In this document: in pieces, positions 25,022-38,616 of the stretch
Layout of the letters: each line of letters starts with the position of its first letter
Numbering within the stretch: the first letter of the stretch is position 1
Source: Pseudobdellovibrionaceae bacterium
Lineage (GTDB): Bacteria > Bdellovibrionota > Bdellovibrionia > Bdellovibrionales > Bdellovibrionaceae
Length of the DNA: 61,936 bases
Assembly: GCA_039810425.1 (NCBI GenBank)
Contig: JBDHWW010000020.1
Location: 1-61,936, forward strand
Reading direction: 5' to 3'
The notes under the pieces: generated by a model
Databases searched by the model: none
Told to the model about the DNA's origin: nothing
The model's input: the letters and a program-made list of their open reading frames with translations, nothing else
Made by a program: the position numbers and the translations under genes

Positions 25022-28000
25022 CTATTTTTCCTTCTTAAACCGCGAGTACATCACCGCCAACAAATGACTTTCATCCACTGGCTTTGTCACGTAGTCCGAA
25101 GCCCCGGCTTCTAAACATTTCTCACGGTCGCCTTTCATGGCTTTTGCCGTGAGCGAGATAATCGGAAGCTGACCAAACTCCGGAATCTTACGAATACCGC
25201 GAGTGGCCTCAATTCCATCCATCTCCGGCATCATCGTATCCATCAAAACAAGGTCGGTGTCCGGGTTTTCCTTAAGGACCGCAATACCTTGCTTCCCGTT
25301 CTCAGCATAGATCACGTTCATGCCGCGCATTTTTAAAATGCTTGTCAGTGCAAAGACGTTACGAACGTCGTCATCGACAACGAGAATTTTTTTACCCGTA
25401 AAATCCGCATCCACGGGAAGGGACTCCACCTCACGCGGCGCCTCGGTTGCTTCAAGCATGCCCAAGACATCGCCCACATACTTCTGCGGCAAATAAAGGG
25501 TGAAACGGCTACCGTGGCTCGGCTCAGACTCAACCTCAATAATACCGCCCAAAAGACGAGCGATTTCGCGGCTGATCGTAAGACCCAAACCCGTCCCACC
25601 GTATTTACGGCTGGTTGTACCATCGGCTTGCTGGAATGCTTCGAAAATCAGTTTCTGCTTCTCGGGAGCGATACCGATACCGGTATCTGTCACACGGAAC
25701 ATAAACGTGTTCTTACCTTTCAGTCCGAGCTCTTCAGCGTGCTTTTTATCCGCCAAACCAATCTCAAGCTTCACGCTGCCTCTCTCGGTGAACTTAAAGG
25801 CATTGGATAGCAAGTTTTTAAGGATCTGCTGCAAACGGTTTTCATCGGTGAACATCGCTTTCGGCAAGTGCGCCCCCATTTCAACCTTAAACTCCAACGT
25901 CTTGTGTTCGGCCACAGGACGGAAGGTCTGCTCGAGGTACTCGAGCACGCTTTCGAGTTCCACCGCCTTCGGATTGACCGGCATTTTTCCGGCTTCGACC
26001 TTGGAAAGATCGAGGATTTCGTTGATCAGCGCCAACAAGTCCTGACCTGCCGAGTGAACCGTGCTTGCGAACTTCACTTGCTCGCTGCTGAGGTTCTTGT
26101 CGCGGTTTTCAGCCAACGTTTTAGAAAGAATGAGCAAGCTATTCAGCGGCGTACGAAGTTCATGCGACATGTTCGCCAAGAACTCCGATTTGTATTTCGA
26201 AATAAGTGACAGCTGTTCGGCTTTCTCTTCCAGGGAGCGCGACGCCAGCTCCACCTCTTGGTTTTTGACCTCGAGGAGCTTTGCTTTGTCTTCGAGTTCT
26301 TTCGCCTGAGCTTCCAGTTCGGCATTGGAACGCTTCAACTCTTGCAGAAGTTCTTCCGTTCTCATGCTTGACGAGATCATGTTCAGGATAACCCCGATGG
26401 AATCCATCAGTTGGTCTAAGAAGTTGATATAGTTCTGGGAGAACGTGCGAGTTGAAGCCAATTCGATCACGGCTTTGAGCTCACCTTCAAAGAGCACCGG
26501 CAACACGATCACGTTGCGTGGTTTTTCGTCGTGAAGGCTTGAGCTGATCACCACGTAGTCTTCTGGAGAATGAGTCAAAAGAATGCGTTTTTTCTCAAAC
26601 GCGCACTGGCCCACCAGACCTTCTTTCAAACGATAGCGGTTCGAAACGTTTTTGCGTTCGGTGAACGCGTAGCTTGCAATCAGATTCAAGCTTTGTTGCT
26701 CATCGGACTCTGTTTCAAGCATGAAGAATGTTCCTTGATGGGCATCCACGAGCGGTGTCAGCTCCGACATAATCAACTGCGCCACCGCAGTGACTGAACG
26801 CTGACCCTGCATCATACTTGAGAACTTCGCGAGATTGGTTTTTAACCAGTCTTGCTCCGTATTTTTCTGAGTCGTATCTTTTAAGTTGCCGATCATGAAG
26901 TTGATATTCTCTGAAAGGGCGGCAACTTCGCCTTGGGCTTCAACGGTGATGGAACGGGTCAAGTCACCCTTTGTGACCGCGGTGGACACTTCGGCGATCG
27001 CACGGACTTGAGCCGTCAAGTTGCCCGCAAGCTGGTTCACATTGTCGGTCAAATCTTTCCAGGTTCCCGCTGCTCCAGGAACTTTTGCCTGGCCCCCCAG
27101 CTTCCCTTCGATACCCACTTCGCGGGCCACGGTCGTAACCTGATCCGAGAAGGTTCTCAGAGTATCCGTCATTGAATTGATGGTTTCCGCAAGAGCGGCC
27201 ACTTCCCCTTTGGCTTCAAGCACGAATTTTTGATTCAAGTCCCCGTTGGCGACCGCCGTGACGACCTTCACGATACCGCGCACTTGAGTGGTCAAGTTTG
27301 AGGCCATAAAATTAACGTTGTCGGTTAAGTCTTTCCAAGTCCCCGCAACCCCAGGAACGCGCGCCTGTGCGCCGAGCTTCCCTTCGATACCCACTTCACG
27401 AGCCACGGTGGTGACCTGGTCGGCAAAAATTCTGAGAGTGTCGGTCATTGAATTGATGGTTTCCGCAAGAGCGGCCACTTCCCCTTTGGCCTCAAGAACG
27501 AATTTTTGATTCAAATCGCCGTTGGCGACCGCCGTGACGACCTTCACGATACCACGCACTTGCTTTGTGAGGTTGGAGGCCATGAAGTTCACGTTGTCGG
27601 TCAAGTCTTTCCAGGTCCCGGAAACCCCGCGCACTTCCGCTTGGCCTCCGAGCTTTCCTTCCGTTCCAACCTCTTTCGCCACGCGAGTCACCTCGGAAGC
27701 AAAAGATGAGAGCTGGTCGACCATCTTGTTGATAACATCTTTGATTTGCAGGATTTCACCGCGCGCATCGACGGTGATCTTTTGTCCCAAATCGCCAGAG
27801 GCAATCGCCGTTGCTACTTTAGAAACGTCACGGAGCTGAACCGTCAGGTTCGAAGCCATCACGTTCACGTTGTCAGTCAAATCTTTCCAAGTCCCGGAGA
27901 CCCCTTTTACTTCCGCTTGGCCTCCGAGCTTTCCTTCCGTTCCGACCTCTTTCGCCACGCGAGTCACCTCGGAGGCGAAGGAGTTCAACTGATCCACCAT

Positions 28001-30514
28001 CGTATTGATGGTGTCTTTCAGCTCCAGGATTTCGCCGCGGGCATCGACGGTGATTTTTTGTGAAAGATCGCCTTTTGCCACCGCCGTCGTTACTTTGGCG
28101 ATGTTACGGACTTGAGTGGTTAAATTATTCGCCAGACCATTTACGTTGTCGGTCAAATCTTTCCAGGTTCCAGCAACACCTTTTACATCGGCCTGACCCC
28201 CAAGACGGCCTTCGGTGCCTACTTCTTTCGCCACACGAGTCACTTCAGCAGCAAAGCTTCTGAGCGTGTCCACCATGGTGTTAATGGTATCTTTGAGCTC
28301 GAGGATTTCACCTTTCGCGTCCACCGTGATTTTTTGTGAAAGATCGCCTTTTGCCACCGCCGTCGTTACTTTGGCGATGTTACGGACTTGCGCGGTCAGG
28401 TTGCCGGCAAGACCATTCACATTATCAGTGAGATCTTTCCAAGTCCCAGACACCCCTTTTACTTCCGCCTGTCCGCCGAGTCGGCCTTCGGTCCCTACTT
28501 CTTTCGCCACGCGAGTCACTTCGGCTGCAAACGAGTTCAGCTGATCCACCATGACGTTAATGGTGTTCTTGAGTTCGAAGATCTCGCCTTTGGCATCCAC
28601 CGTGATTTTTTGTGAAAGATCGCCTTTTGCCACCGCCGTCGTTACTTTGGCGATGTTACGGACTTGCGCGGTCAGGTTGCCGGCAAGACCATTCACATTA
28701 TCAGTGAGATCTTTCCAAGTCCCAGACACCCCTTTTACTTCCGCCTGTCCGCCCAGCTTTCCTTCCGTGCCTACTTCCTTCGCCACACGAGTGACTTCAG
28801 AGGCAAAAGACGACAGCTGGTCGACCATCTTGTTGATAACATCCTTGATCTGCAGGATTTCACCCTTTGCTTCAACCGTGATTTTTTGTCCAAGATCGCC
28901 GTTCGCAATAGAGGTCGCCACTTTAGACACGTCACGGAGCTGAACCGTCAGATTTGATGCCATCGCGTTGACGTTGTCGGTCAGATCCTTCCAAGTTCCA
29001 GACACACCCTTTACATCGGCCTGGCCACCGAGCTTACCCTCGGTACCCACTTCCTTCGCCATACGAGTGACTTCAGCAGCGAAACTTCGGAGGGTGTCCA
29101 CCATGGTGTTAATGGTATCTTTGAGCTCAAGGATTTCACCTTTCGCATCCACCGTGATCTTTTGTGACAAGTCCCCGTTGGCGACGGCCGTGGTTACTTT
29201 GGCGATGTTACGAACCTGGGCGGTCAGGTTACCGGCAAGACCATTCACATTATCAGTGAGATCCTTCCAAGTTCCAGACACACCCTTTACGTCGGCCTGG
29301 CCACCGAGCTTACCCTCGGTACCCACTTCCTTCGCTACGCGAGTGACTTCAGAGGCAAAGGAATTCAACTGGTCCACCATGACATTAATGGTATTTTTTA
29401 ATTCAGAGATTTCGCCGCGGGCATCAACGGTGATTTTTTGTGAAAGATCGCCTTTTGCCACCGCCGTCGTTACTTTGGCGATGTTACGAACCTGAGCGGT
29501 CAAATTATTCGCCAGACCATTTACGTTGTCGGTCAAATCCTTCCACGTACCCGATACGCCTTTTACGTCGGCCTGACCGCCGAGACGGCCTTCGGTACCC
29601 ACTTCCTTCGCCACACGAGTCACCTCGGCGGCGAAGGAAGACAACTGATCCACCATGACGTTGATGGTGTTCTTGAGTTCAAAGATCTCACCTTTGGCAT
29701 CCACCGTGATTTTTTGTGACAAATCCCCCTTGGCAACGGCGGTCGTCACTTTTGCGATATTACGTACTTGATCCGTCAAGTTTCCAGCAAGGATGTTTAC
29801 GTTATCAGTCAAATCTCTCCAGATACCAGACGCACCTTTTACGTCGGCCTGGCCACCGAGTTTTCCCTCGGTGCCCACCTCTTTCGCAACACGCGTTACT
29901 TCAGAGGCAAACGAATTCAGTTGATCCACCATGGCATTGACCGTTGTACCGATACGGAGGAATTCCCCTTTTACGGTTCGGCCATCAATTTCCAAGGACA
30001 TCTTTTGTGACAAGTCCCCTTTCGCAACGTGGGTGATGACCCGCGCGACCTCGGTTGTCGGCTGCACCAGGTCCCCGATGAGCAAGTTCACAGAGTCGAC
30101 ACTCGTCGCCCAGGCTCCGCGAACAGTTCCCATGGAAACACGTTCCGACATCTTACCTTCTTGGCCCACGGTGTTTCGCACGCGCGAAAATTCATTCGCC
30201 ATGCTTTCATTCATTTCAATAATATCGTTAAGAACTTCACCGATCTCGGCGATGATGCCCTCGTGAAGCTGCGGCATGCGCACATTGAACTCGCCTCGAC
30301 GAACCGCCTTTACCGTAAAAAGCAGCTGCCGAAGCTGTTCATGAGCCGTATTCAAAGGGAAATCGCCTTTGGGAATTTCGCGATAAAAAGGCGTGTTCGC
30401 CATGGGAGGGGCGTTGAGTTTTTTGGACTTTGCAACACTCGCCTTTTGACTTTTGCCAAGCTTAGATTTTTTGAGCTCGCCATTTTGTGAAGACCTCACT
30501 GATGGTTTTTCCAT
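25022..30514 (-). CDS. Cytoplasmic poly-HAMP hybrid histidine kinase (HAMPn-GAF-HisKA-HATPase-REC; Nik1/group III-like)
   Basis: 11 W(K/R)DLTDNVN units of 92 aa plus one degenerate unit, [22 protein letters not shown], single C-terminal REC. Confidence 0.96.
26930..30150 (-). repeat. Intragenic tandem repeat, 276-bp period (HAMP units)
   Basis: ~12 units; 28320-28477 and 28596-28753 are identical by eye. Outer boundaries approximate. Confidence 0.9.
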
Positions 30515-31964: not shown

Positions 31965-33590
31965 ATGAATCAAGAATATTTTGAATGGACCCTGTTATTA
32001 GCCCGTTGGTTGCACATCATCGTTGGTATCACGTGGATTGGCACCTCGATTTTCTTTATGTGGCTTGACCGCACATTCACGCCAAATCCCAATTCCAAAA
32101 ACGCCGGCCACGTGGGTGATCTGTGGATGGTTCACGGGGGTGGCTTCTATCATGTCGAAAAACTTTTGATGGGCCCCACCAAAGTCCCCGAAGAGCTTCA
32201 CTGGTTTAAGTGGGAGTCTTATTGGACTTGGATGAGCGGAATCTTTTTGCTCATCGCTATTTTCTACACCGGTAGCGGCACGTTCTTACTCGACAACAGC
32301 GTTTCAGGAATCACGTACTGGCAAGCCGTCGGCATTGGTGTTGGCTCGATTTTAGTTTCCTGGTTCTTTTATGACTTCCTGTGGGAATCAAAACTCACCA
32401 AACAAAAGCCCGTCATCGGCCACATTTTGACAATTCTCTGGCTTGCCGGAATGGCTTATTTCCTTTGCCATACCTTGAGCGGCCGTGCGGCTTATATTCA
32501 TATCGGCGCGATGCTCGGCACTTGGATGACGGCCAATGTGTTTCTCCGGATCATTCCCCGCCAAGTGAAAATGGTCGAGGCCGCAAAGAAGGGCGAACCG
32601 GTCCATCCAGACTGGGGTCAGAACGCGAAGAACCGTTCAACCCATAATACTTACTTCACCCTGCCTGTGATTTTCCTGATGCTCAGCAACCACTTTTCAC
32701 AAACCTATGGCAATCAGTGGAACTGGCTCATTTTACTTTTGATCAGTGCCGCAGGGGCCGCGATTCGTGAATTCTTTGTGGTGCGTTTGAAAAACCCGGC
32801 GCGCTCAAGAGCTTTTGCCGCCATCGGTCTCTGCCTCATTCTTGGAGTTGTCGTGTTTACACGCGAGAACACCGGCAGCACGGCCGCCGCTCAAGAAGCG
32901 CATCACGAGGCTCCTTCGCCTAAAACCGCAGCCGTCACGGCCGTTGCGGAGGGCACAGGGGGGGTGATGGGGGTTGTCAGCTTTAATGGCGACGCTCCTC
33001 AAACGGAAAAACTTCTTTTGCCGTTTGCATGCGCCTCTCATTACAACGGCGACGCCTATTCAAATGAGATTCTTATTAAAAATGGTAAGCTCAAAAACGT
33101 TCTCGTGCGTGTGGTAAAAGGCCTTGACGCCAAAACTTATACGGACGTACCGGCGGAGCCCGTCATCGTCGACCAAGTGGGCTGTCAGTACGAACCACGC
33201 GTGACCGCAGCCCGCGTGGGGCAAAAAGTGGAGTTCATCAATAGCGATGCGCTTTTCCACAACGTGCGTTCTATCACAACCAGCAACGAAGTGTTCAACA
33301 TTTCAATGCCGAATAAAAATGACCGCTTCACCAAAATCTTCCAGAAGCCAGAGATATTCGTGCAAACCAAGTGCAGTGTTCACCCATGGATGAATGCCTA
33401 TGTCGCCGTGATGGACCACCCGTTCTACAGCGTATCTAACGACCGTGGCGAGTTTGTGATTAAAAACCTGCCGCCGGGGCATTACACGCTAGAGGCGTGG
33501 CATGAGGTCTTTGGCACTCAAACCAAAGAAATCGATATCAAAGCCAACGACACGACCAAGGAAGAATTTGAATTTAAGAAAAAGGACTAA
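31965..33590 (+). CDS. puuD: PuuD-type integral-membrane urate oxidase domain fused to a cupredoxin-like (not cytochrome c) domain
   Basis: RWLHIIVGITWIGTS, LWMVHGGGFY, LHWFKWESYWTWMSG, SGRAAYIHIGAMLGT, RSTHNTYFTLPVIFLMLSNH. C-terminus has HNV...CSVHPWM and no CxxCH. Confidence 0.9.
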   Translation: MNQEYFEWTLLLARWLHIIVGITWIGTSIFFMWLDRTFTPNPNSKNAGHVGDLWMVHGGGFYHVEKLLMGPTKVPEELHWFKWESYWTWMSGIFLLIAIFYTGSGTFLLDNSVSGITYWQAVGIGVGSILVSWFFYDFLWESKLTKQKPVIGHILTILWLAGMAYFLCHTLSGRAAYIHIGAMLGTWMTANVFLRIIPRQVKMVEAAKKGEPVHPDWGQNAKNRSTHNTYFTLPVIFLMLSNHFSQTYGNQWNWLILLLISAAGAAIREFFVVRLKNPARSRAFAAIGLCLILGVVVFTRENTGSTAAAQEAHHEAPSPKTAAVTAVAEGTGGVMGVVSFNGDAPQTEKLLLPFACASHYNGDAYSNEILIKNGKLKNVLVRVVKGLDAKTYTDVPAEPVIVDQVGCQYEPRVTAARVGQKVEFINSDALFHNVRSITTSNEVFNISMPNKNDRFTKIFQKPEIFVQTKCSVHPWMNAYVAVMDHPFYSVSNDRGEFVIKNLPPGHYTLEAWHEVFGTQTKEIDIKANDTTKEEFEFKKKD

Positions 33591-33593
33591 GCC

Positions 33594-33917
33594 ATGATCA
33601 GCACTCACATTCTTGACACCAGCATCGGCAGTCCTGCGGCGGATGTTGCGGTTTCTTTGAAAAGAAAAGACGGCGACGCCTGGAAAGACCTTGGCAAGGG
33701 CGTCACGGATTCAGACGGCCGTTTCGTTTTTGACTGTGAAAAAGTCATCGGCACTTATCAGATTGTTTTTGATACCGGGGACTACTTTAAAAAATCCGGC
33801 CGCGAGAGCTTTTTTATGAACACGCCGGTGATTTTTAAAATCTCGGATGTGAGTCGTAAGTATCACGTGCCTCTCTTGTTAAACCCCTTTGGATACTCCA
33901 CCTATCGCGGAAGTTAA
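33594..33917 (+). CDS. uraH: 5-hydroxyisourate hydrolase (transthyretin-like)
   Basis: ISTHILDT, TDSDGR, YHVPLLLNPFGYSTYRGS; no signal peptide. Confidence 0.97.
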   Translation: MISTHILDTSIGSPAADVAVSLKRKDGDAWKDLGKGVTDSDGRFVFDCEKVIGTYQIVFDTGDYFKKSGRESFFMNTPVIFKISDVSRKYHVPLLLNPFGYSTYRGS

Positions 33918-33930
33918 GGCGGCGGCCGTT

Positions 33931-36900
33931 ATGTCTCAACGAGAAATCCCCTACTATCTGGACTATGCCTCTGAAAATCTTTTGAATTACTTGCAGCCGG
34001 AATTAAAGCCTGTTCCCGGCAATCCGGAACTGCAACAAGTCGGCAGCATGGGGGGCCTTGAAAGCCCCGAGTCCTTGAAGTTTTTGTGTGAACTTTACGA
34101 TGCGGTAAAGCCGGAACTGCAAAAAGTTCTTGAACAGCGGATTGTCGATCGCAAGTTTATCGATGAGCGTACCAAAGCCTGCTATGAGCTCAATAAGTCG
34201 TTAGGCATTGATTTCCTTGATCCGCGCTATCATACGGTTCTCGGCCAAGAAGATGCCGGGGGGCGTATCGTCATGGGCCCTAAAAATGATTTTTACTGCA
34301 AGCCCGGCGGCGGAAAGCCGGTCGCTGAGATTCCGAAATTCTTGCAAGGCAACCATGTGACGTTGTTCGGTCCACCCGATGATGCCAAACTTTCAATCAA
34401 CGCGATGAATGCCTACCACCGCAAGCTCCACGCTGAACCCGCAGTGGTGGCGGAGCTTTTAAAAACTCACACCAGTGAGGCCAAATGGGGTGCTGACGAC
34501 GAGGACTCCAAAACGCCCCTGCGCCGCGATTTGATTTCGGCCGGCGAAAACCTCACCGGATGCTTTAACAAAAACCTTCACTTCGTCGATCCAAAATCGC
34601 ATAAAGAATACCAACTCGAAAAAGAGCATCTTTCACTGCCGGTGAAACGATTTCCGGGGCTGGCGATGCCGTGCTTGTTCCTCTACTACAAAAACAACCC
34701 CTTGCCCTTGCATATGTATGATTTTGCGTTGCACCTCTTTGAACACTGGCAAAACCCGGAAGCTTTGGCATTCTATGTACCCAAACTCGAAACCGAAGAA
34801 GAAGCCCGCTACATCCGCCTCCTGATTGAGACCGCAGAGAAAATGATCGCAAAACTCCACCCGGCCTATCAGGTTGGTACGGTCCGCTTGTTGATCGTGC
34901 TTGAAAATCCACGCGCGGTTTTCCGCGTGAACGAAATCATGGATGAACTCTATCCGTACTTTGCCGGCGCTTCCCTCGGGTGGCATGACTACTTGGGATC
35001 TACCGCAAGACTCTTTAAAGAGGATGCGAACTATCGCATCCCGGTGAAGGCCGATCCGAACATCGTGATTAAATACATTAAAGGCTCGCATGATCTTCTT
35101 GCCAATGTCGTGGGTCCGCGCGGTGGGATTAAGATCGGTGGCATGTACGGCATTCTTCCCATCGACACCGACCTCACGAATCCCTCTTTTCAGATCACCA
35201 TGAAGGGCTTCATCAAAGACGTCATCACACAGATGAAACGTCAGCTCTCGGGTTTCTGGGTCGCCCACCCGGATTTTGTGCGCTTAGGCCTTGCCCTGAT
35301 TGAAGCGTGGAAGTTTCATGCCTCAGGCGATTCAAGCAAACTCGAGATGATGATTAAGTCTTTGCTCGAGCCAAAGTATCACAAAGAGATTTTGGATTTC
35401 GTTTTCGGTCCAGACATCCAGGGCCTTGATATTACGGACCCCCTTTATGCCCGCTCACTGATTGTTGCCGACATTAAGGAATCGACTTATATCGCGAACA
35501 ATCACCCGGAAGAAATCCGTTACAACATCTTCCAATCGCTTCAGTATCTGACCGACTGGCTTTCCGGAAATGGCTGCGTCGCCCTGCCAACGCAGATCGA
35601 AGGAATCCCCGCGCGCGTGATGGACGACCTGGCCACGGCCGAGCGATCACGTTGGGAAGTCTGGCATGAACTTCACCATGGCCGCTTTAGTATCGGCAAC
35701 TTTTTAAAAATCGCCCACGAGGAACTGCACTTTATCCGTAAGGATCTTTCAAACGGAAAAAAGATCGTTCAAGTGAAATGGAATGAACGCACGGAAAAAT
35801 GGTACCCGGTGGCCATGAATCTGATGCTTCACTTGATGACCAGCGATCATCCGGTGGAGTTCGCCTCTGAATTACTTTTGCCATTTACTTTAGATTCCAT
35901 CCGCCACTCGCAGGACCCTTGGCAAGCAGTGACGAAGATCGATCCTGTGAAGTACGCGATTAAACCATATGTTACGCGCTTTAATTATTACTTCTCGATG
36001 TGTGGGAGCCTCGCTTTTGCCACCGAAATGGCAAAGAACTTGACGGTGGATCTTGCGCAAACTGAAAAGTTGATCCGCCAGTTTGATATGGCTCAGATTC
36101 TAGAAGCCGCAAGCTTCCATGGGGATATTGGCGAAGCCAAGAAAACTCTCGATGCCATGGCCTCGAAAGAACAGGCCCTCGTTCATCAAGAAGATAAAGC
36201 GCTCCAAGAAGAGCTGCTGGTTCAGGGGAAAGCCTACCGCGAGAAGTTCGGCATGAAGTTTTTGATTTCAGCCCAGGGAAAATCCGGCAAGGAACTATTG
36301 ACGGCGCTGCAAAATCGCAGGAACAACTCGCTGGCGGCTGAAATGGACCATGCGCGCGCAGCGCTTTGGGAAATCACCAAAAAGCGCCTCACCGCTCATC
36401 CCATGAATCAGCTGCAAGATTTTATCACCGAGGCGCTGAAGCGCCACAACGTCAACGCCGCCCAGGTTTCAATTTCAACCGGCGAAGGTCTTTTACAAGA
36501 TCTGGCCTTCGGCCAGGCCACGACGGGGACCTGGTTTGAAGTCGCCTCGCTGAGTAAAACCCTCGGCAGTTGCTATGCGATGGAATACTTCCGCAAAAAA
36601 GGTATTCCGCTCACTACCCCCGTCAACGCGCTCTTCGCAAAAAGCTCCTCGGGCTTTAGGTTAAAATCCCTCAACCGGCAACATCCCGAATGGGCGGACC
36701 AAGTCACGTTGGCTCACTTGATGAGTCACGCCGCCCTGAACATGCATTATGTGATCGGCACTCCGGCAAACGAACCGATGCAAAATCTCAAGGAACTTGT
36801 TGAAGGCTCTGTCGGGGTTATCAACGAACCGGGCACGAAATTCCAATACTCGGGTGCAGGCTTTTTAGTGCTGGAACACCTTATTGAGGCGCTGGAGGGA

Positions 36901-38616
36901 AAACGTATTCAAGACCTCACTCGTCCGTTTTTGGATCAATTGGGACTGACAGACTTTTCATTTGAGCAAAAAAATCTGCCGGGAGTACAATACGCAACGG
37001 CCTATGATGTTGCGGGAGTTGAAATCCCAGGAGGCCGCAAGCTCTTCCCCGCTTTTGCCGCGGGCGCGATGGGGACAGCTCACGCCATCGAAGAATTCTT
37101 AACCGCCCTCACAAAGGCGTTTCATGGCGTGAAAGGCTTTGGGCCGATCTCGCATGATACGGCGATGCGGATGCTGTATGGAACAGATAAAGGCTGCCGT
37201 AAGTTCATGGGCACGAAAATGGGCCTCGGCATCTTTACCGCGGAAGCCGGACCGAATCGCCTCGCGATCCATCAGGGAGCCAACGATGGCTATCGTTGCT
37301 TGTTTGCCCATTGCTATGACGGTCCTGCCAAAGGCCAGGGCTTTACGGTTCTTTGCAATGCCGAACTCAACGGCGTGCTTTTCATCTCCGAAGTTGCGCA
37401 AGCTCTGCTGAAAGAATTCAATATCGCGGGCATTGACTACCGCCGCTTTAAGAAAACTTTCGTCAGTTCAGAAATTCCACAAGAGCAGATCGTCAACATC
37501 GGCTATCGTGATTTGATTTTCGATGCCTTCGAATCCGATTTGCCGGAAGAGATCATCGAAAAGGGTCCTCTTGATCCATTGGCGAAATACAATTTTGCGA
37601 TGGGTGCAAAGATTATCGAAACAACGAATCAAGGCTTTGCCCGCGCGGCGAATCTGCTATCGGACCATCTGCCGTTATTTGACCCGAAACTCTTTGGCCG
37701 CCAAGGTAAGATCATGGACAGCTGGGAAACCGTCCGGCACAACCAAAAAACCTGCGATGAGTTGGTTTTTGAATTGAAGAAACCTGCAGCGATCCACTAT
37801 GTCGCCGTTTCCACCAAGTACCATCTCGGCAATCAGGCCCAGTTTACAAAGCTTGAGGGCTTGAACGACGACACAAAAGCATGGCAGGAACTCATTCCAA
37901 AGACGGCTCTTGAAGGCCATGCACTGAAGCGGATGACAACGTCAACGGGTGTGGCGAAATTCCGCCAGATCAAGATGTCTCTCTATCCCGATGGGGGTAT
38001 TTCACGTCTGGGACTTTATGACGAGTCTTTGCCTGAAACGGAAAAATCCAAGTACGATTCACCGGAGCGCGCAAAGAGCGAGGTTTTTACGGATGAAATC
38101 CCCAAAACTCAGCGCTCACTGGCGCCGAAGTATGATGCCAGCGCCAAGGAGCTCGCCGCGAACTGGCAGGCCGCTGGGGATGAGGTCGATGTTGCGAGTC
38201 TTGCCTATGGTGCAAAGGTCGTGAAAGCGACGAACGAGCACTTTGGCCCCGCGGCTCAGGTGATTTCACCCTACCCTCCACTTCATATGTTTGACGGGAT
38301 GGAGTCGGCTCGCAGCCGTGACGAGGGGCACTTTGAGGAAATCGTCATTGAGCTTGCAAGACCCGCGGCAATTCATCGTTTGGAACTCGATTTTACGTAC
38401 TTTGTGAATAACAATCCGTTAGAAGTGTCCGTCGAAGGCCTGGCCGCCGGCGCCTGGATGCCCCTTGTTCCCCGCACCAATGTGAAAGCCTACGCGGCAA
38501 ATAAATTCACGATGGACCTTTCGCTGGCGGAAAAAATCACCCAAATAAAGCTTACGGCTTTTCCGGACGGTGGGATCAATCGGGTTAAAGCTTTTGCGCG
38601 AAGGGGTCCGCTATAA
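33931..38616 (+). CDS. Four-domain fusion: malate synthase / OHCU decarboxylase / beta-lactamase-family serine hydrolase / allantoicase
   Basis: One uninterrupted ORF. Malate synthase: FYVPKLE, WVAHP, WLSGNGCV, MDDLATAE. UraD: HGDIG, EQA, YREKFGMKFLI. Serine hydrolase: SLSK, YSG, HQG. Allantoicase: DSWET/PDGGISRL and DGMESAR/PDGGINRV. ATG 33931 preferred over TTG 33889. Confidence 0.9.
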   Translation: MSQREIPYYLDYASENLLNYLQPELKPVPGNPELQQVGSMGGLESPESLKFLCELYDAVKPELQKVLEQRIVDRKFIDERTKACYELNKSLGIDFLDPRYHTVLGQEDAGGRIVMGPKNDFYCKPGGGKPVAEIPKFLQGNHVTLFGPPDDAKLSINAMNAYHRKLHAEPAVVAELLKTHTSEAKWGADDEDSKTPLRRDLISAGENLTGCFNKNLHFVDPKSHKEYQLEKEHLSLPVKRFPGLAMPCLFLYYKNNPLPLHMYDFALHLFEHWQNPEALAFYVPKLETEEEARYIRLLIETAEKMIAKLHPAYQVGTVRLLIVLENPRAVFRVNEIMDELYPYFAGASLGWHDYLGSTARLFKEDANYRIPVKADPNIVIKYIKGSHDLLANVVGPRGGIKIGGMYGILPIDTDLTNPSFQITMKGFIKDVITQMKRQLSGFWVAHPDFVRLGLALIEAWKFHASGDSSKLEMMIKSLLEPKYHKEILDFVFGPDIQGLDITDPLYARSLIVADIKESTYIANNHPEEIRYNIFQSLQYLTDWLSGNGCVALPTQIEGIPARVMDDLATAERSRWEVWHELHHGRFSIGNFLKIAHEELHFIRKDLSNGKKIVQVKWNERTEKWYPVAMNLMLHLMTSDHPVEFASELLLPFTLDSIRHSQDPWQAVTKIDPVKYAIKPYVTRFNYYFSMCGSLAFATEMAKNLTVDLAQTEKLIRQFDMAQILEAASFHGDIGEAKKTLDAMASKEQALVHQEDKALQEELLVQGKAYREKFGMKFLISAQGKSGKELLTALQNRRNNSLAAEMDHARAALWEITKKRLTAHPMNQLQDFITEALKRHNVNAAQVSISTGEGLLQDLAFGQATTGTWFEVASLSKTLGSCYAMEYFRKKGIPLTTPVNALFAKSSSGFRLKSLNRQHPEWADQVTLAHLMSHAALNMHYVIGTPANEPMQNLKELVEGSVGVINEPGTKFQYSGAGFLVLEHLIEALEGKRIQDLTRPFLDQLGLTDFSFEQKNLPGVQYATAYDVAGVEIPGGRKLFPAFAAGAMGTAHAIEEFLTALTKAFHGVKGFGPISHDTAMRMLYGTDKGCRKFMGTKMGLGIFTAEAGPNRLAIHQGANDGYRCLFAHCYDGPAKGQGFTVLCNAELNGVLFISEVAQALLKEFNIAGIDYRRFKKTFVSSEIPQEQIVNIGYRDLIFDAFESDLPEEIIEKGPLDPLAKYNFAMGAKIIETTNQGFARAANLLSDHLPLFDPKLFGRQGKIMDSWETVRHNQKTCDELVFELKKPAAIHYVAVSTKYHLGNQAQFTKLEGLNDDTKAWQELIPKTALEGHALKRMTTSTGVAKFRQIKMSLYPDGGISRLGLYDESLPETEKSKYDSPERAKSEVFTDEIPKTQRSLAPKYDASAKELAANWQAAGDEVDVASLAYGAKVVKATNEHFGPAAQVISPYPPLHMFDGMESARSRDEGHFEEIVIELARPAAIHRLELDFTYFVNNNPLEVSVEGLAAGAWMPLVPRTNVKAYAANKFTMDLSLAEKITQIKLTAFPDGGINRVKAFARRGPL

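Follow-up and report, generated by a model that had tools for sequence, protein, structure and literature searches.

The 61,936-nucleotide stretch at positions 1 to 61,936 (forward strand) of contig JBDHWW010000020.1 of a Pseudobdellovibrionaceae bacterium (GenBank assembly GCA_039810425.1; phylum Bdellovibrionota), hereafter the window, carries a gene for a four-domain fusion protein in which a serine hydrolase domain of the beta-lactamase fold lies between a 2-oxo-4-hydroxy-4-carboxy-5-ureidoimidazoline (OHCU) decarboxylase domain and an allantoicase domain. Allantoinase catalyzes a textbook step of purine nitrogen recycling, for which two unrelated enzyme classes, AllB and PuuE, are known. 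Strong comparative evidence suggests that the beta-lactamase-fold domain is a serine-nucleophile allantoinase (EC 3.5.2.5) unrelated to either, that is, a new, non-homologous enzyme for a known activity. We put the probability of this reading, which draws on the fusion itself, gene context, elimination, and phyletic complementarity, at about 0.72. Slightly less firmly, we favor a broader proposal, in which the domain would be a third independent class of allantoinase, using a covalent acyl-serine on the penicillin-binding protein (PBP) fold and common to Bdellovibrionota and peroxisome-targeted marine algal and protist proteins; one polypeptide would carry four steps of urate breakdown in Bdellovibrionota, and the ureidoglycolate lyase step would have three interchangeable solutions in this one phylum, namely, AllA, DUF6986, and a bacterial malate-synthase-like (MS-like) domain. 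The locus comprises the following features.

31965..33590, + strand: PuuD-type integral-membrane urate oxidase, 541 aa, with a CarboxypepD_reg-like beta-sandwich C-terminal extension (PF06181 Urate_ox_N, E 3.4e-109, residues 5-298; PF13620 at 475-535).
33594..33917, + strand: 5-hydroxyisourate (HIU) hydrolase, 107 aa, C-terminus YRGS (TIGR02962, 124.7 bits against a cut-off of 87.45; PF00576).
33931..38616, + strand: four-domain fusion gene, 1561 aa from ATG 33931; the mechanical open reading frame (ORF) is 33889..38616, from TTG 33889 (ORF list, translation, identical database protein P0003).
33931..35988, + strand: MS-like domain, proposed ureidoglycolate lyase (PF01274 and PF20659).
35998..36399, + strand: OHCU decarboxylase domain (PF09349, E 2.5e-18, residues 723-834; NF010372 over residues 704-837).
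36400..37548, + strand: beta-lactamase-fold (PF00144) serine hydrolase domain, candidate allantoinase (PF00144, E 2.2e-20; AlphaFold; Foldseek; own clade).
36547..36558, + strand: S-L-S-K motif with the proposed nucleophile Ser887 and general-base Lys890 (motif position; alignment of relatives).
36847..36855, + strand: Y-S-G motif (Tyr987), counterpart of the class C Y-x-N box (motif position; Y150, S151, and G152 invariant in the alignment).
37270..37296, + strand: H-Q-G-A-N-D-G-Y-R strand, comprising the H-x-G counterpart of the K-T-G box and invariant Asn1132, Gly1134, and Arg1136 (H291, N295, G297, and R299 invariant in the alignment).
37597..38613, + strand: allantoicase domain, two repeats (PF03561, E 5.4e-52, in two stretches; TIGR02961, E 3.7e-56).

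Since genes for the PuuD-type urate oxidase and the HIU hydrolase lie directly upstream of the fusion gene on the same strand, the locus can be recognized as a urate-degradation operon. Translation of the fusion gene probably starts at ATG 33931 (M15 of the mechanical ORF), 14 nt beyond the stop codon of the gene before it, because the identical database protein P0003 is 1561 aa long and a start at TTG 33889 would overlap the HIU hydrolase gene. Pfam resolves the product, in order, into MS_TIM-barrel (residues 266-468), MS_C (540-653), OHCU_decarbox (723-834), Beta-lactamase (843-1157), and Allantoicase (from 1239), and the NCBIfam scan agrees. The position between the OHCU decarboxylase and allantoicase domains that the first-pass annotation had given to the serine hydrolase domain is thereby borne out, and the motif codons that it had reported lie where it put them (SLSK at residue 887, nt 36547; YSG at residue 987, nt 36847; HQG at residue 1128, nt 37270). 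As for the bounds of 36400-37430 assigned to the domain, the start stands and the end does not: a C-terminal helix, Q-E-x-I-V-N-x-G-x-K-x-L-V-F-x-A-F, conserved in all relatives, carries the domain approximately 40 residues past that end, as seen in the alignment with stand-alone relatives, and the structural model, confident to about residue 383 of 391, puts the end near nt 37548. Accordingly delimited, the domain spans residues 838 to ~1220 of the fusion protein.

The assignment of the domain to PF00144 (E 2.2e-20; 73.5 bits against a gathering score of 27) is matched by its predicted structure. An AlphaFold model, for which 27 sequences served as input, has a mean pLDDT of 93.7 and a pTM of 0.93, is confident to about residue 383 of 391, and displays, as does the Foldseek comparison, the two-domain alpha/beta plus all-alpha fold of PF00144 enzymes. 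Every listed Foldseek match in the Protein Data Bank (PDB) has the class C beta-lactamase/DD-peptidase fold (probability 1.00, E 5e-20 to 1e-15, TM 0.6-0.7, identity to solved structures at most 22%), the matches including the IS11 esterase 7spn (E 5e-20, TM 0.70), a Pyrococcus PBP homologue, LACTB, the R61 DD-peptidase, the D-amino-acid amidase 2drw, and AmpC. In a sequence search of the PDB, the top match reached E 1e-5, and the ESM Atlas returned generic PF00144 clusters. We also considered and rejected identity with clinical-type AmpC: the domain is internal to a 1561-aa fusion, carries Y-S-G and H-Q-G, and is 14-19% identical to AmpC-type structures.

The canonical active-site motifs of the fold are S-x-x-K for motif 1, Y-x-N for motif 2, and K/H-T/S-G for motif 3. 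Motif 1, S-x-x-K, is present as S887-L-S-K890, and SLSK recurs in nearly all full-length representatives. Motif 2 reads Y-S-G, with the Tyr invariant and Gly in place of Asn family-wide as well as in 12 of 13 outgroup proteins, and motif 3 is H1128-Q-G, which becomes H-Q-A in most relatives while the His is invariant in the alignment. Positions identical in all 24 aligned relatives include S50, S52, K53, H110, Y117, Y150, S151, G152, H291, N295, G297, and R299 (alignment numbering), and S-x-S-K, Y-S-G, and H..N.G.R persist among relatives down to ~30% identity. Because the motif residues are invariant in these 24 relatives, the predicted catalytic Ser/Lys/Tyr/His apparatus is under strong purifying selection. 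Comparison with the 13 closest PF00144 proteins outside the family singles out Tyr954 (Gly in 11 of 13), Gly1059, Phe1106, Phe1116, and Asn1123 as differences, and a one-residue insertion at Gly1145 sets the family further apart. In a quick maximum-likelihood tree, the family (69 rows) splits from this outgroup with 100% SH-aLRT, four rows being long branches of unsure placement; the tree took in 82 of 186 full-length domain sequences, to which proteins under 1300 aa contributed all of their 61 and proteins of at least 1300 aa every sixth of their 125.

Enzymes of this fold cleave both cyclic and linear amides through an acyl-serine, and OHCU decarboxylase yields (S)-allantoin. In the proposed scheme, the operon would convert urate to glyoxylate and two molecules of urea. 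PuuD would oxidize urate, HIU hydrolase would act on the PuuD product, and the OHCU decarboxylase domain of the fusion would give (S)-allantoin, the hydantoin ring of which would be opened to allantoate by the beta-lactamase-fold domain; the allantoicase domain would then release ureidoglycolate and urea, and the MS-like domain would split ureidoglycolate into glyoxylate and urea. At the active site, Ser887, activated by Lys890 and Tyr987 as acid/base, would attack the C4 carbonyl of the ring, the N3-C4 amide would break to leave an acyl-serine intermediate, and water would release allantoate from the acyl-enzyme to the neighboring allantoicase domain. The H-Q-G strand would supply the oxyanion hole, and family-specific residues such as Tyr954, Asn1132, and Arg1136 may bind the ureido groups. 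The domain architecture, fold, intact motifs, gene context, and phyletic complementarity with AllB are direct results, whereas the substrate, acyl-enzyme chemistry, and stereospecificity of the domain are inferred, the mechanism being modeled on class C beta-lactamases, DD-peptidases, and D-amino-acid amidases; selectivity for the S enantiomer would be expected, because the upstream OHCU decarboxylase makes (S)-allantoin.

Among the bacterial fusions examined, relatives of the domain are tied to urate breakdown. With one genome scanned per species, 255 genomes proved to encode a relative, and we counted the gene context by tblastn, with the window's own proteins as queries, in the best 80 loci, many of which are cut by contig ends. 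Bdellovibrio, Bacteriovorax, Bacteriovoracaceae, Halobacteriovoraceae, Peredibacter, Oligoflexus, and Silvanigrellaceae are the main sources of these loci, and a few come from metagenome-assembled genomes labeled Planctomycetota, Phycisphaerales, or Myxococcales. Allantoicase directly follows the domain in 80/80 loci and OHCU decarboxylase precedes it in 79/80, so that the linkage to purine-catabolism genes, which the first-pass annotation had proposed as a test, is essentially obligatory among the fused forms examined. The same 80 loci contain the MS-like domain in 75 cases, HIU hydrolase in 65, PuuD in 55, and a xanthine-dehydrogenase-like subunit B (XdhB) in 26. In bacteria, the domain order of OHCU decarboxylase, beta-lactamase-fold domain, and allantoicase is the order of the pathway. 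One relative of the same genus (G244) has a gene for a 299-aa polysaccharide deacetylase directly after the fusion (L011:13452-14351), which we considered as a hidden PuuE candidate and discarded: it produced only weak matches to peptidoglycan and spore deacetylase models, far below their cut-offs, and no homologue of it was found in the window's genome.

The genome from which the window derives is 99.88% complete. A profile search for PuuE (TIGR03212) gave no match in it, nor were AllA or an ATP-dependent hydantoinase matched, and no protein exceeded the cut-off of the AllB model (TIGR03178), the top match scoring 273 bits against 357.85. We rejected this top match as an AllB since NF006559 identifies it as a dihydroorotase (694 bits; cut-off, 482); the beta-lactamase-fold domain itself has no similarity to the AllB family (TIGR03178). 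Thus, the absence of AllB and PuuE, originally noted for the window, extends to the whole genome. No urease alpha domain was found in this genome either, for which reason urea is apparently an end product, and the operon may provide carbon from glyoxylate rather than nitrogen. A xanthine-dehydrogenase-like pair is encoded on another contig of the genome (C2:16227-19548) and is 26-40% identical to the xanthine dehydrogenase (Xdh) of a relative.

Complementarity with AllB was evident in a survey of 301 genomes sampled evenly from the same phylum, in which the domain was called at E <= 1e-30. Allantoicase is encoded by 61 of the 301 genomes, 34 of which have the domain, always in a long open frame also holding allantoicase, and 27 a free-standing allantoicase of ~340 aa. 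AllB above the cut-off occurs in 27 of the 61, comprising 26 domain-less genomes and a single domain-bearing one, G270. Conversely, 33 of the 34 domain-bearing genomes are devoid of AllB above the cut-off, whereas all 27 domain-less allantoicase genomes have AllB beside allantoicase; 26 of these exceed the cut-off, and in the remaining one (G163, 83% complete) AllB is split over two contig ends, one piece adjoining allantoicase. PuuE was found in none of the 61. Five further fusion-bearing genomes labeled Planctomycetota or Myxococcales likewise yielded neither AllB above the cut-off (0/5) nor PuuE (0/5). The anti-correlation with AllB is therefore nearly perfect (33/34 versus 27/27), and each of the computational tests that the first-pass annotation had proposed turned out in favor of its interpretation. 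Both operon types occur within single genera, g83 (G073 and G224) and g99 (G236 and G215), and thus the pattern does not reflect one ancient split; they also occur together in families f19, f22, and f29. We note that the locus of G270 (L010, G270:C12:1-14000) represents a split version of the system and holds a domain-allantoicase gene of 772 aa, a lone single allantoicase repeat of 166 aa, a separate MS-like gene of 735 aa, and a class-V aminotransferase resembling the aspartate-glyoxylate aminotransferase BhcA (207 bits, below the cut-off).

A scan of 1.84 billion representatives retrieved 2681 proteins at E <= 1e-3 and 93 at E <= 1e-30. Database names for proteins of this family are "serine hydrolase," "malate synthase," "allantoicase/CubicO group peptidase," or "hypothetical protein." A Pfam scan of 66 family representatives found allantoicase repeats in 30 and the domain alone in 31, the other 5 being fragments with OHCU or MS-like domains. 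The fusions fall into three main architectures: MS-like, OHCU, domain, and allantoicase (~1550 aa); OHCU, domain, and allantoicase (~1000 aa); and domain and allantoicase (~750 aa). Stand-alone forms are eukaryotic, coming from Prymnesium parvum, Amorphochlora amoebiformis, a chrysophyte, and MMETSP and EukProt transcripts; overall, the eukaryotic relatives are of haptophyte, chlorarachniophyte, chrysophyte, and dinoflagellate origin and often end in peroxisomal-type SKL or SRL. A terminal tripeptide resembling peroxisomal targeting signal 1 (PTS1), [SAC][KRH][LMI], is found in 8 of the 31 stand-alone representatives as well as in the fused proteins P0165 and P0243, far more often than the chance rate, which we roughly estimate at well under 1%. 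Urate oxidase and allantoicase are peroxisomal in many eukaryotes, according to the accessible part of PMC8919083. The same assignment follows independently from P0165, of the dinoflagellate Polykrikos kofoidii (EukProt), in which the domain is joined to an AllA-type ureidoglycolate lyase (PF04115, E 6.7e-33) and allantoicase and which ends in SKL: since this protein already has lyase and allantoicase, its domain would supply another function, and allantoinase is the adjoining step. The allantoicase repeats of the fusions score ~60-110 bits each on the Pfam model, compared with ~140-190 bits for free-standing allantoicases of the same phylum; because of these lower scores, the fusion cassette as a whole may have arisen separately in evolution, perhaps with an origin common to the eukaryotic forms.

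The argument by elimination rests on a comparison of the two operon types. The AllB-type operon, as annotated at four loci, reads [Xdh]-PuuD-AllB-allantoicase-OHCU decarboxylase-HIU hydrolase-DUF6986, and the domain-type operon reads [Xdh]-PuuD-HIU hydrolase-[MS-like-OHCU decarboxylase-domain-allantoicase]. Once the shared functions are cancelled, AllB and DUF6986 are left on one side and the beta-lactamase-fold and MS-like domains on the other. Across the 61 allantoicase-bearing genomes, AllA (3 genomes), DUF6986 (24), and the MS-like domain (34) are mutually exclusive and jointly exhaustive, DUF6986 being present in exactly the 24 AllB-type genomes that have no AllA and in 0/34 of the domain type; the three thereby define a single functional slot. 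The MS-like domain scores 129.5 bits against TIGR01344, far below the equivalog cut-off of 594.5, and aligned to Escherichia coli malate synthase A (MSA, 3cuz) it has Trp at position R276. In the accessible part of PMC10120013, eukaryotic MS-like proteins are shown by experiment to be ureidoglycolate lyases devoid of malate synthase activity, Arg276 is one of two positions highlighted and is substituted in the fish enzyme, and the ureidoglycolate lyase (UGL) group consists of eukaryotic sequences only. This precedent, together with the exclusivity with AllA and DUF6986, suggests that the N-terminal MS-like domain of the fusion probably supplies ureidoglycolate lyase rather than malate synthase, in which case AllB pairs with the beta-lactamase-fold domain.

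Both lyase-slot proteins merit some remarks of their own. Stand-alone relatives of the MS-like domain, ~680 aa long, number in the hundreds and come from Desulfobulbales-type genera, Myxococcota, Bradymonadaceae, and Planctomycetes. DUF6986 (PF22484, ~450-470 aa) is the last gene of AllB-type urate operons (L004:11071-12477, L005:10842-12260, L007:10588-11937, and L012:11062-12420), and its presence in exactly the 24 genomes lacking AllA and the MS-like domain makes it a candidate for an uncharacterized ureidoglycolate lyase; we found no mention of DUF6986 in the literature searched. Homology between DUF6986 and the MS-like domain is unsupported, as BLASTP against one DUF6986 protein detected no similarity (top E 1.9); a weak malyl-CoA lyase match of DUF6986 (E 0.0055) is the sole hint of a link.

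Several points weigh against an allantoinase function of the beta-lactamase-fold domain. The elimination argument requires that the MS-like domain be the ureidoglycolate lyase, and this domain keeps all five malate synthase residues compared (R166, E250, D278, W365, and D447), with R276 alone changed, and is the only malate synthase barrel in its genome. Were it a true malate synthase consuming glyoxylate, the serine hydrolase domain could be an amidase for some other bond of the ureide pathway, acting in ureidoglycolate, urea, or oxalurate hydrolysis or in the clean-up of side products. Such a role would suit a genome with neither a urease alpha domain nor AllA, and linear amides are common substrates of the fold, exemplified by the D-amino-acid amidase 2drw among the Foldseek matches. 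However, it would leave the opening of the allantoin ring without any candidate in 33 of the 34 domain-bearing genomes, and the partner that the domain complements is AllB, the AllA/DUF6986 slot being matched by the MS-like domain. In the dinoflagellate fusion, moreover, the AllA-type lyase stands beside the domain and allantoicase, which excludes the domain as the lyase in that protein, and the accessible part of PMC10120013 describes the eukaryotic MS-like proteins as lyases without malate synthase activity. We consequently regard the amidase alternative as unlikely, if the best surviving of the alternatives.

Slightly less probable still is that allantoin is opened by a promiscuous dihydroorotase or dihydropyrimidinase paralogue, with the beta-lactamase-fold domain in an accessory role, whether as a scaffold, in substrate handling or regulation, or in the manner of a racemase-like helper. 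Such paralogues could in principle moonlight as allantoinase: 21 of the 34 domain-bearing genomes have a match to the AllB model at E <= 1e-60, all of them dihydroorotase- or dihydropyrimidinase-type amidohydrolases scoring 205-286 bits, and the AllB-like match of the window's own genome is the dihydroorotase described above. One of the best 80 loci (L019) has an AllB-like tblastn match 6 kb downstream of the fusion; we rejected it as an allantoinase because it is a dihydropyrimidinase (TIGR02033, 608 bits) set in a pyrimidine-catabolism cluster, between genes for a methylmalonate-semialdehyde dehydrogenase and a nitrilase-superfamily carbamoyl-amidase. Yet the AllB-type genomes contain the same 205-286-bit paralogues, as second or third matches, and keep a dedicated AllB nonetheless, whereas 13 of the 34 domain-bearing genomes are without an AllB-like match even at E <= 1e-60. 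Catalysis rather than scaffolding is also favored by the Ser/Lys/Tyr/His motifs, which are strictly conserved from bacteria to eukaryotes.

Further reservations concern the evidence at large. G270 has both AllB and a domain-allantoicase gene, and hence the two systems are not strictly exclusive, and the complementarity counts overstate their statistical weight, because related genomes are not independent samples. The nearest outgroup proteins have most of the motifs, so the motifs alone leave the substrate undefined. To our knowledge, ring opening of hydantoins or imides is not described for this fold, and our searches turned up no such enzyme. Finally, the idea that the domain is a common beta-lactamase, DD-peptidase, or esterase and that its union with purine enzymes is accidental or an artifact of assembly or gene calling, which could appeal to the generic PF00144 match and to the closest solved structures (esterase 7spn, DD-peptidase R61, and AmpC-type enzymes), has next to no likelihood, given that the same uninterrupted frame recurs in 34/301 genomes of the phylum, including single-contig assemblies, and in the best 80 loci, that the domain sits inside a cytoplasmic-type fusion, and that it forms its own clade (100% SH-aLRT against the nearest PF00144 proteins, in a quick tree only) with at most 22% identity to solved structures.

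If the allantoinase assignment is correct, the domain would share its reaction and pathway position with AllB (PucH, DAL1; TIGR03178), which fills the complementary allantoicase-bearing genomes. The two have no relationship in sequence or fold: AllB is a free-standing TIM barrel with a binuclear metal center that activates water, whereas the domain is fused and has a Ser-Lys-Tyr set implying, by inference, an acyl-enzyme. Precedent for a non-homologous allantoinase is provided by PuuE (HpxB; TIGR03212), a metal-independent enzyme that has a different, polysaccharide-deacetylase fold and no serine nucleophile. PuuE was reportedly identified by gene context and phyletic complementarity, the same logic as applied here. 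With class C beta-lactamases, the Streptomyces R61 DD-peptidase, 2drw, the family VIII esterases IS11 (7spn) and Est-Y29, and LACTB, the domain has in common the PF00144 fold and the three-motif active site, at which those enzymes cleave amide or ester bonds by way of an acyl-serine, but it differs from them in having Y-S-G for Y-x-N, in residues of its own (Tyr954, Phe1106, and Gly1059), and in being embedded in purine-catabolic fusions. The nearest parallel to the N-terminal domain of the fusion, a divergent malate synthase homologue linked to allantoicase, is Danio rerio UGL (accessible part of PMC10120013), in which Arg276 (E. coli numbering) is likewise substituted; Trp365 is kept in the window's MS-like domain and is Met in the fish UGL. 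A metal-independent allantoinase variant and HpxB/PuuE are mentioned in the accessible part of a 2026 review (PMC13751858), and a term search of the accessible part of the 2026 review of uric acid catabolic enzymes found neither "lactamase" nor "Bdellovibrio." No link of allantoinase to this fold or to Bdellovibrio was found in the literature searched, although subscription journals were mostly outside that search, so that a prior description is possible.

Two other observations were made in the window. Described PuuD proteins end in a cytochrome c domain; the PuuD-type urate oxidase encoded here and in several relatives has a ~240-aa C-terminal extension with a CarboxypepD_reg-like beta-sandwich (PF13620) and a faint amicyanin-like match, and some PuuD genes of AllB-type operons encode only ~403-408 aa. 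On the - strand, positions 25022-30514 encode a 1830-aa hybrid of sensor histidine kinase and response regulator, the N-terminal two thirds of which, in translation, consist of many tandem ~90-aa units forming a poly-HAMP-like array.

An allantoinase function of the beta-lactamase-fold domain would, if true, fill a hole in the metabolism predicted for predatory bacteria and for ecologically important algae, including the toxic bloom former Prymnesium parvum and dinoflagellates, for which purines and ureides matter as sources of nitrogen. Hydantoin rings would be added to the chemistry of the beta-lactamase/PBP fold, and annotations as "serine hydrolase," "malate synthase," or "CubicO peptidase" would be corrected by the thousands. 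The protein from Bdellovibrionota would also provide a natural four-enzyme fusion for studying the channeling of unstable ureide intermediates.

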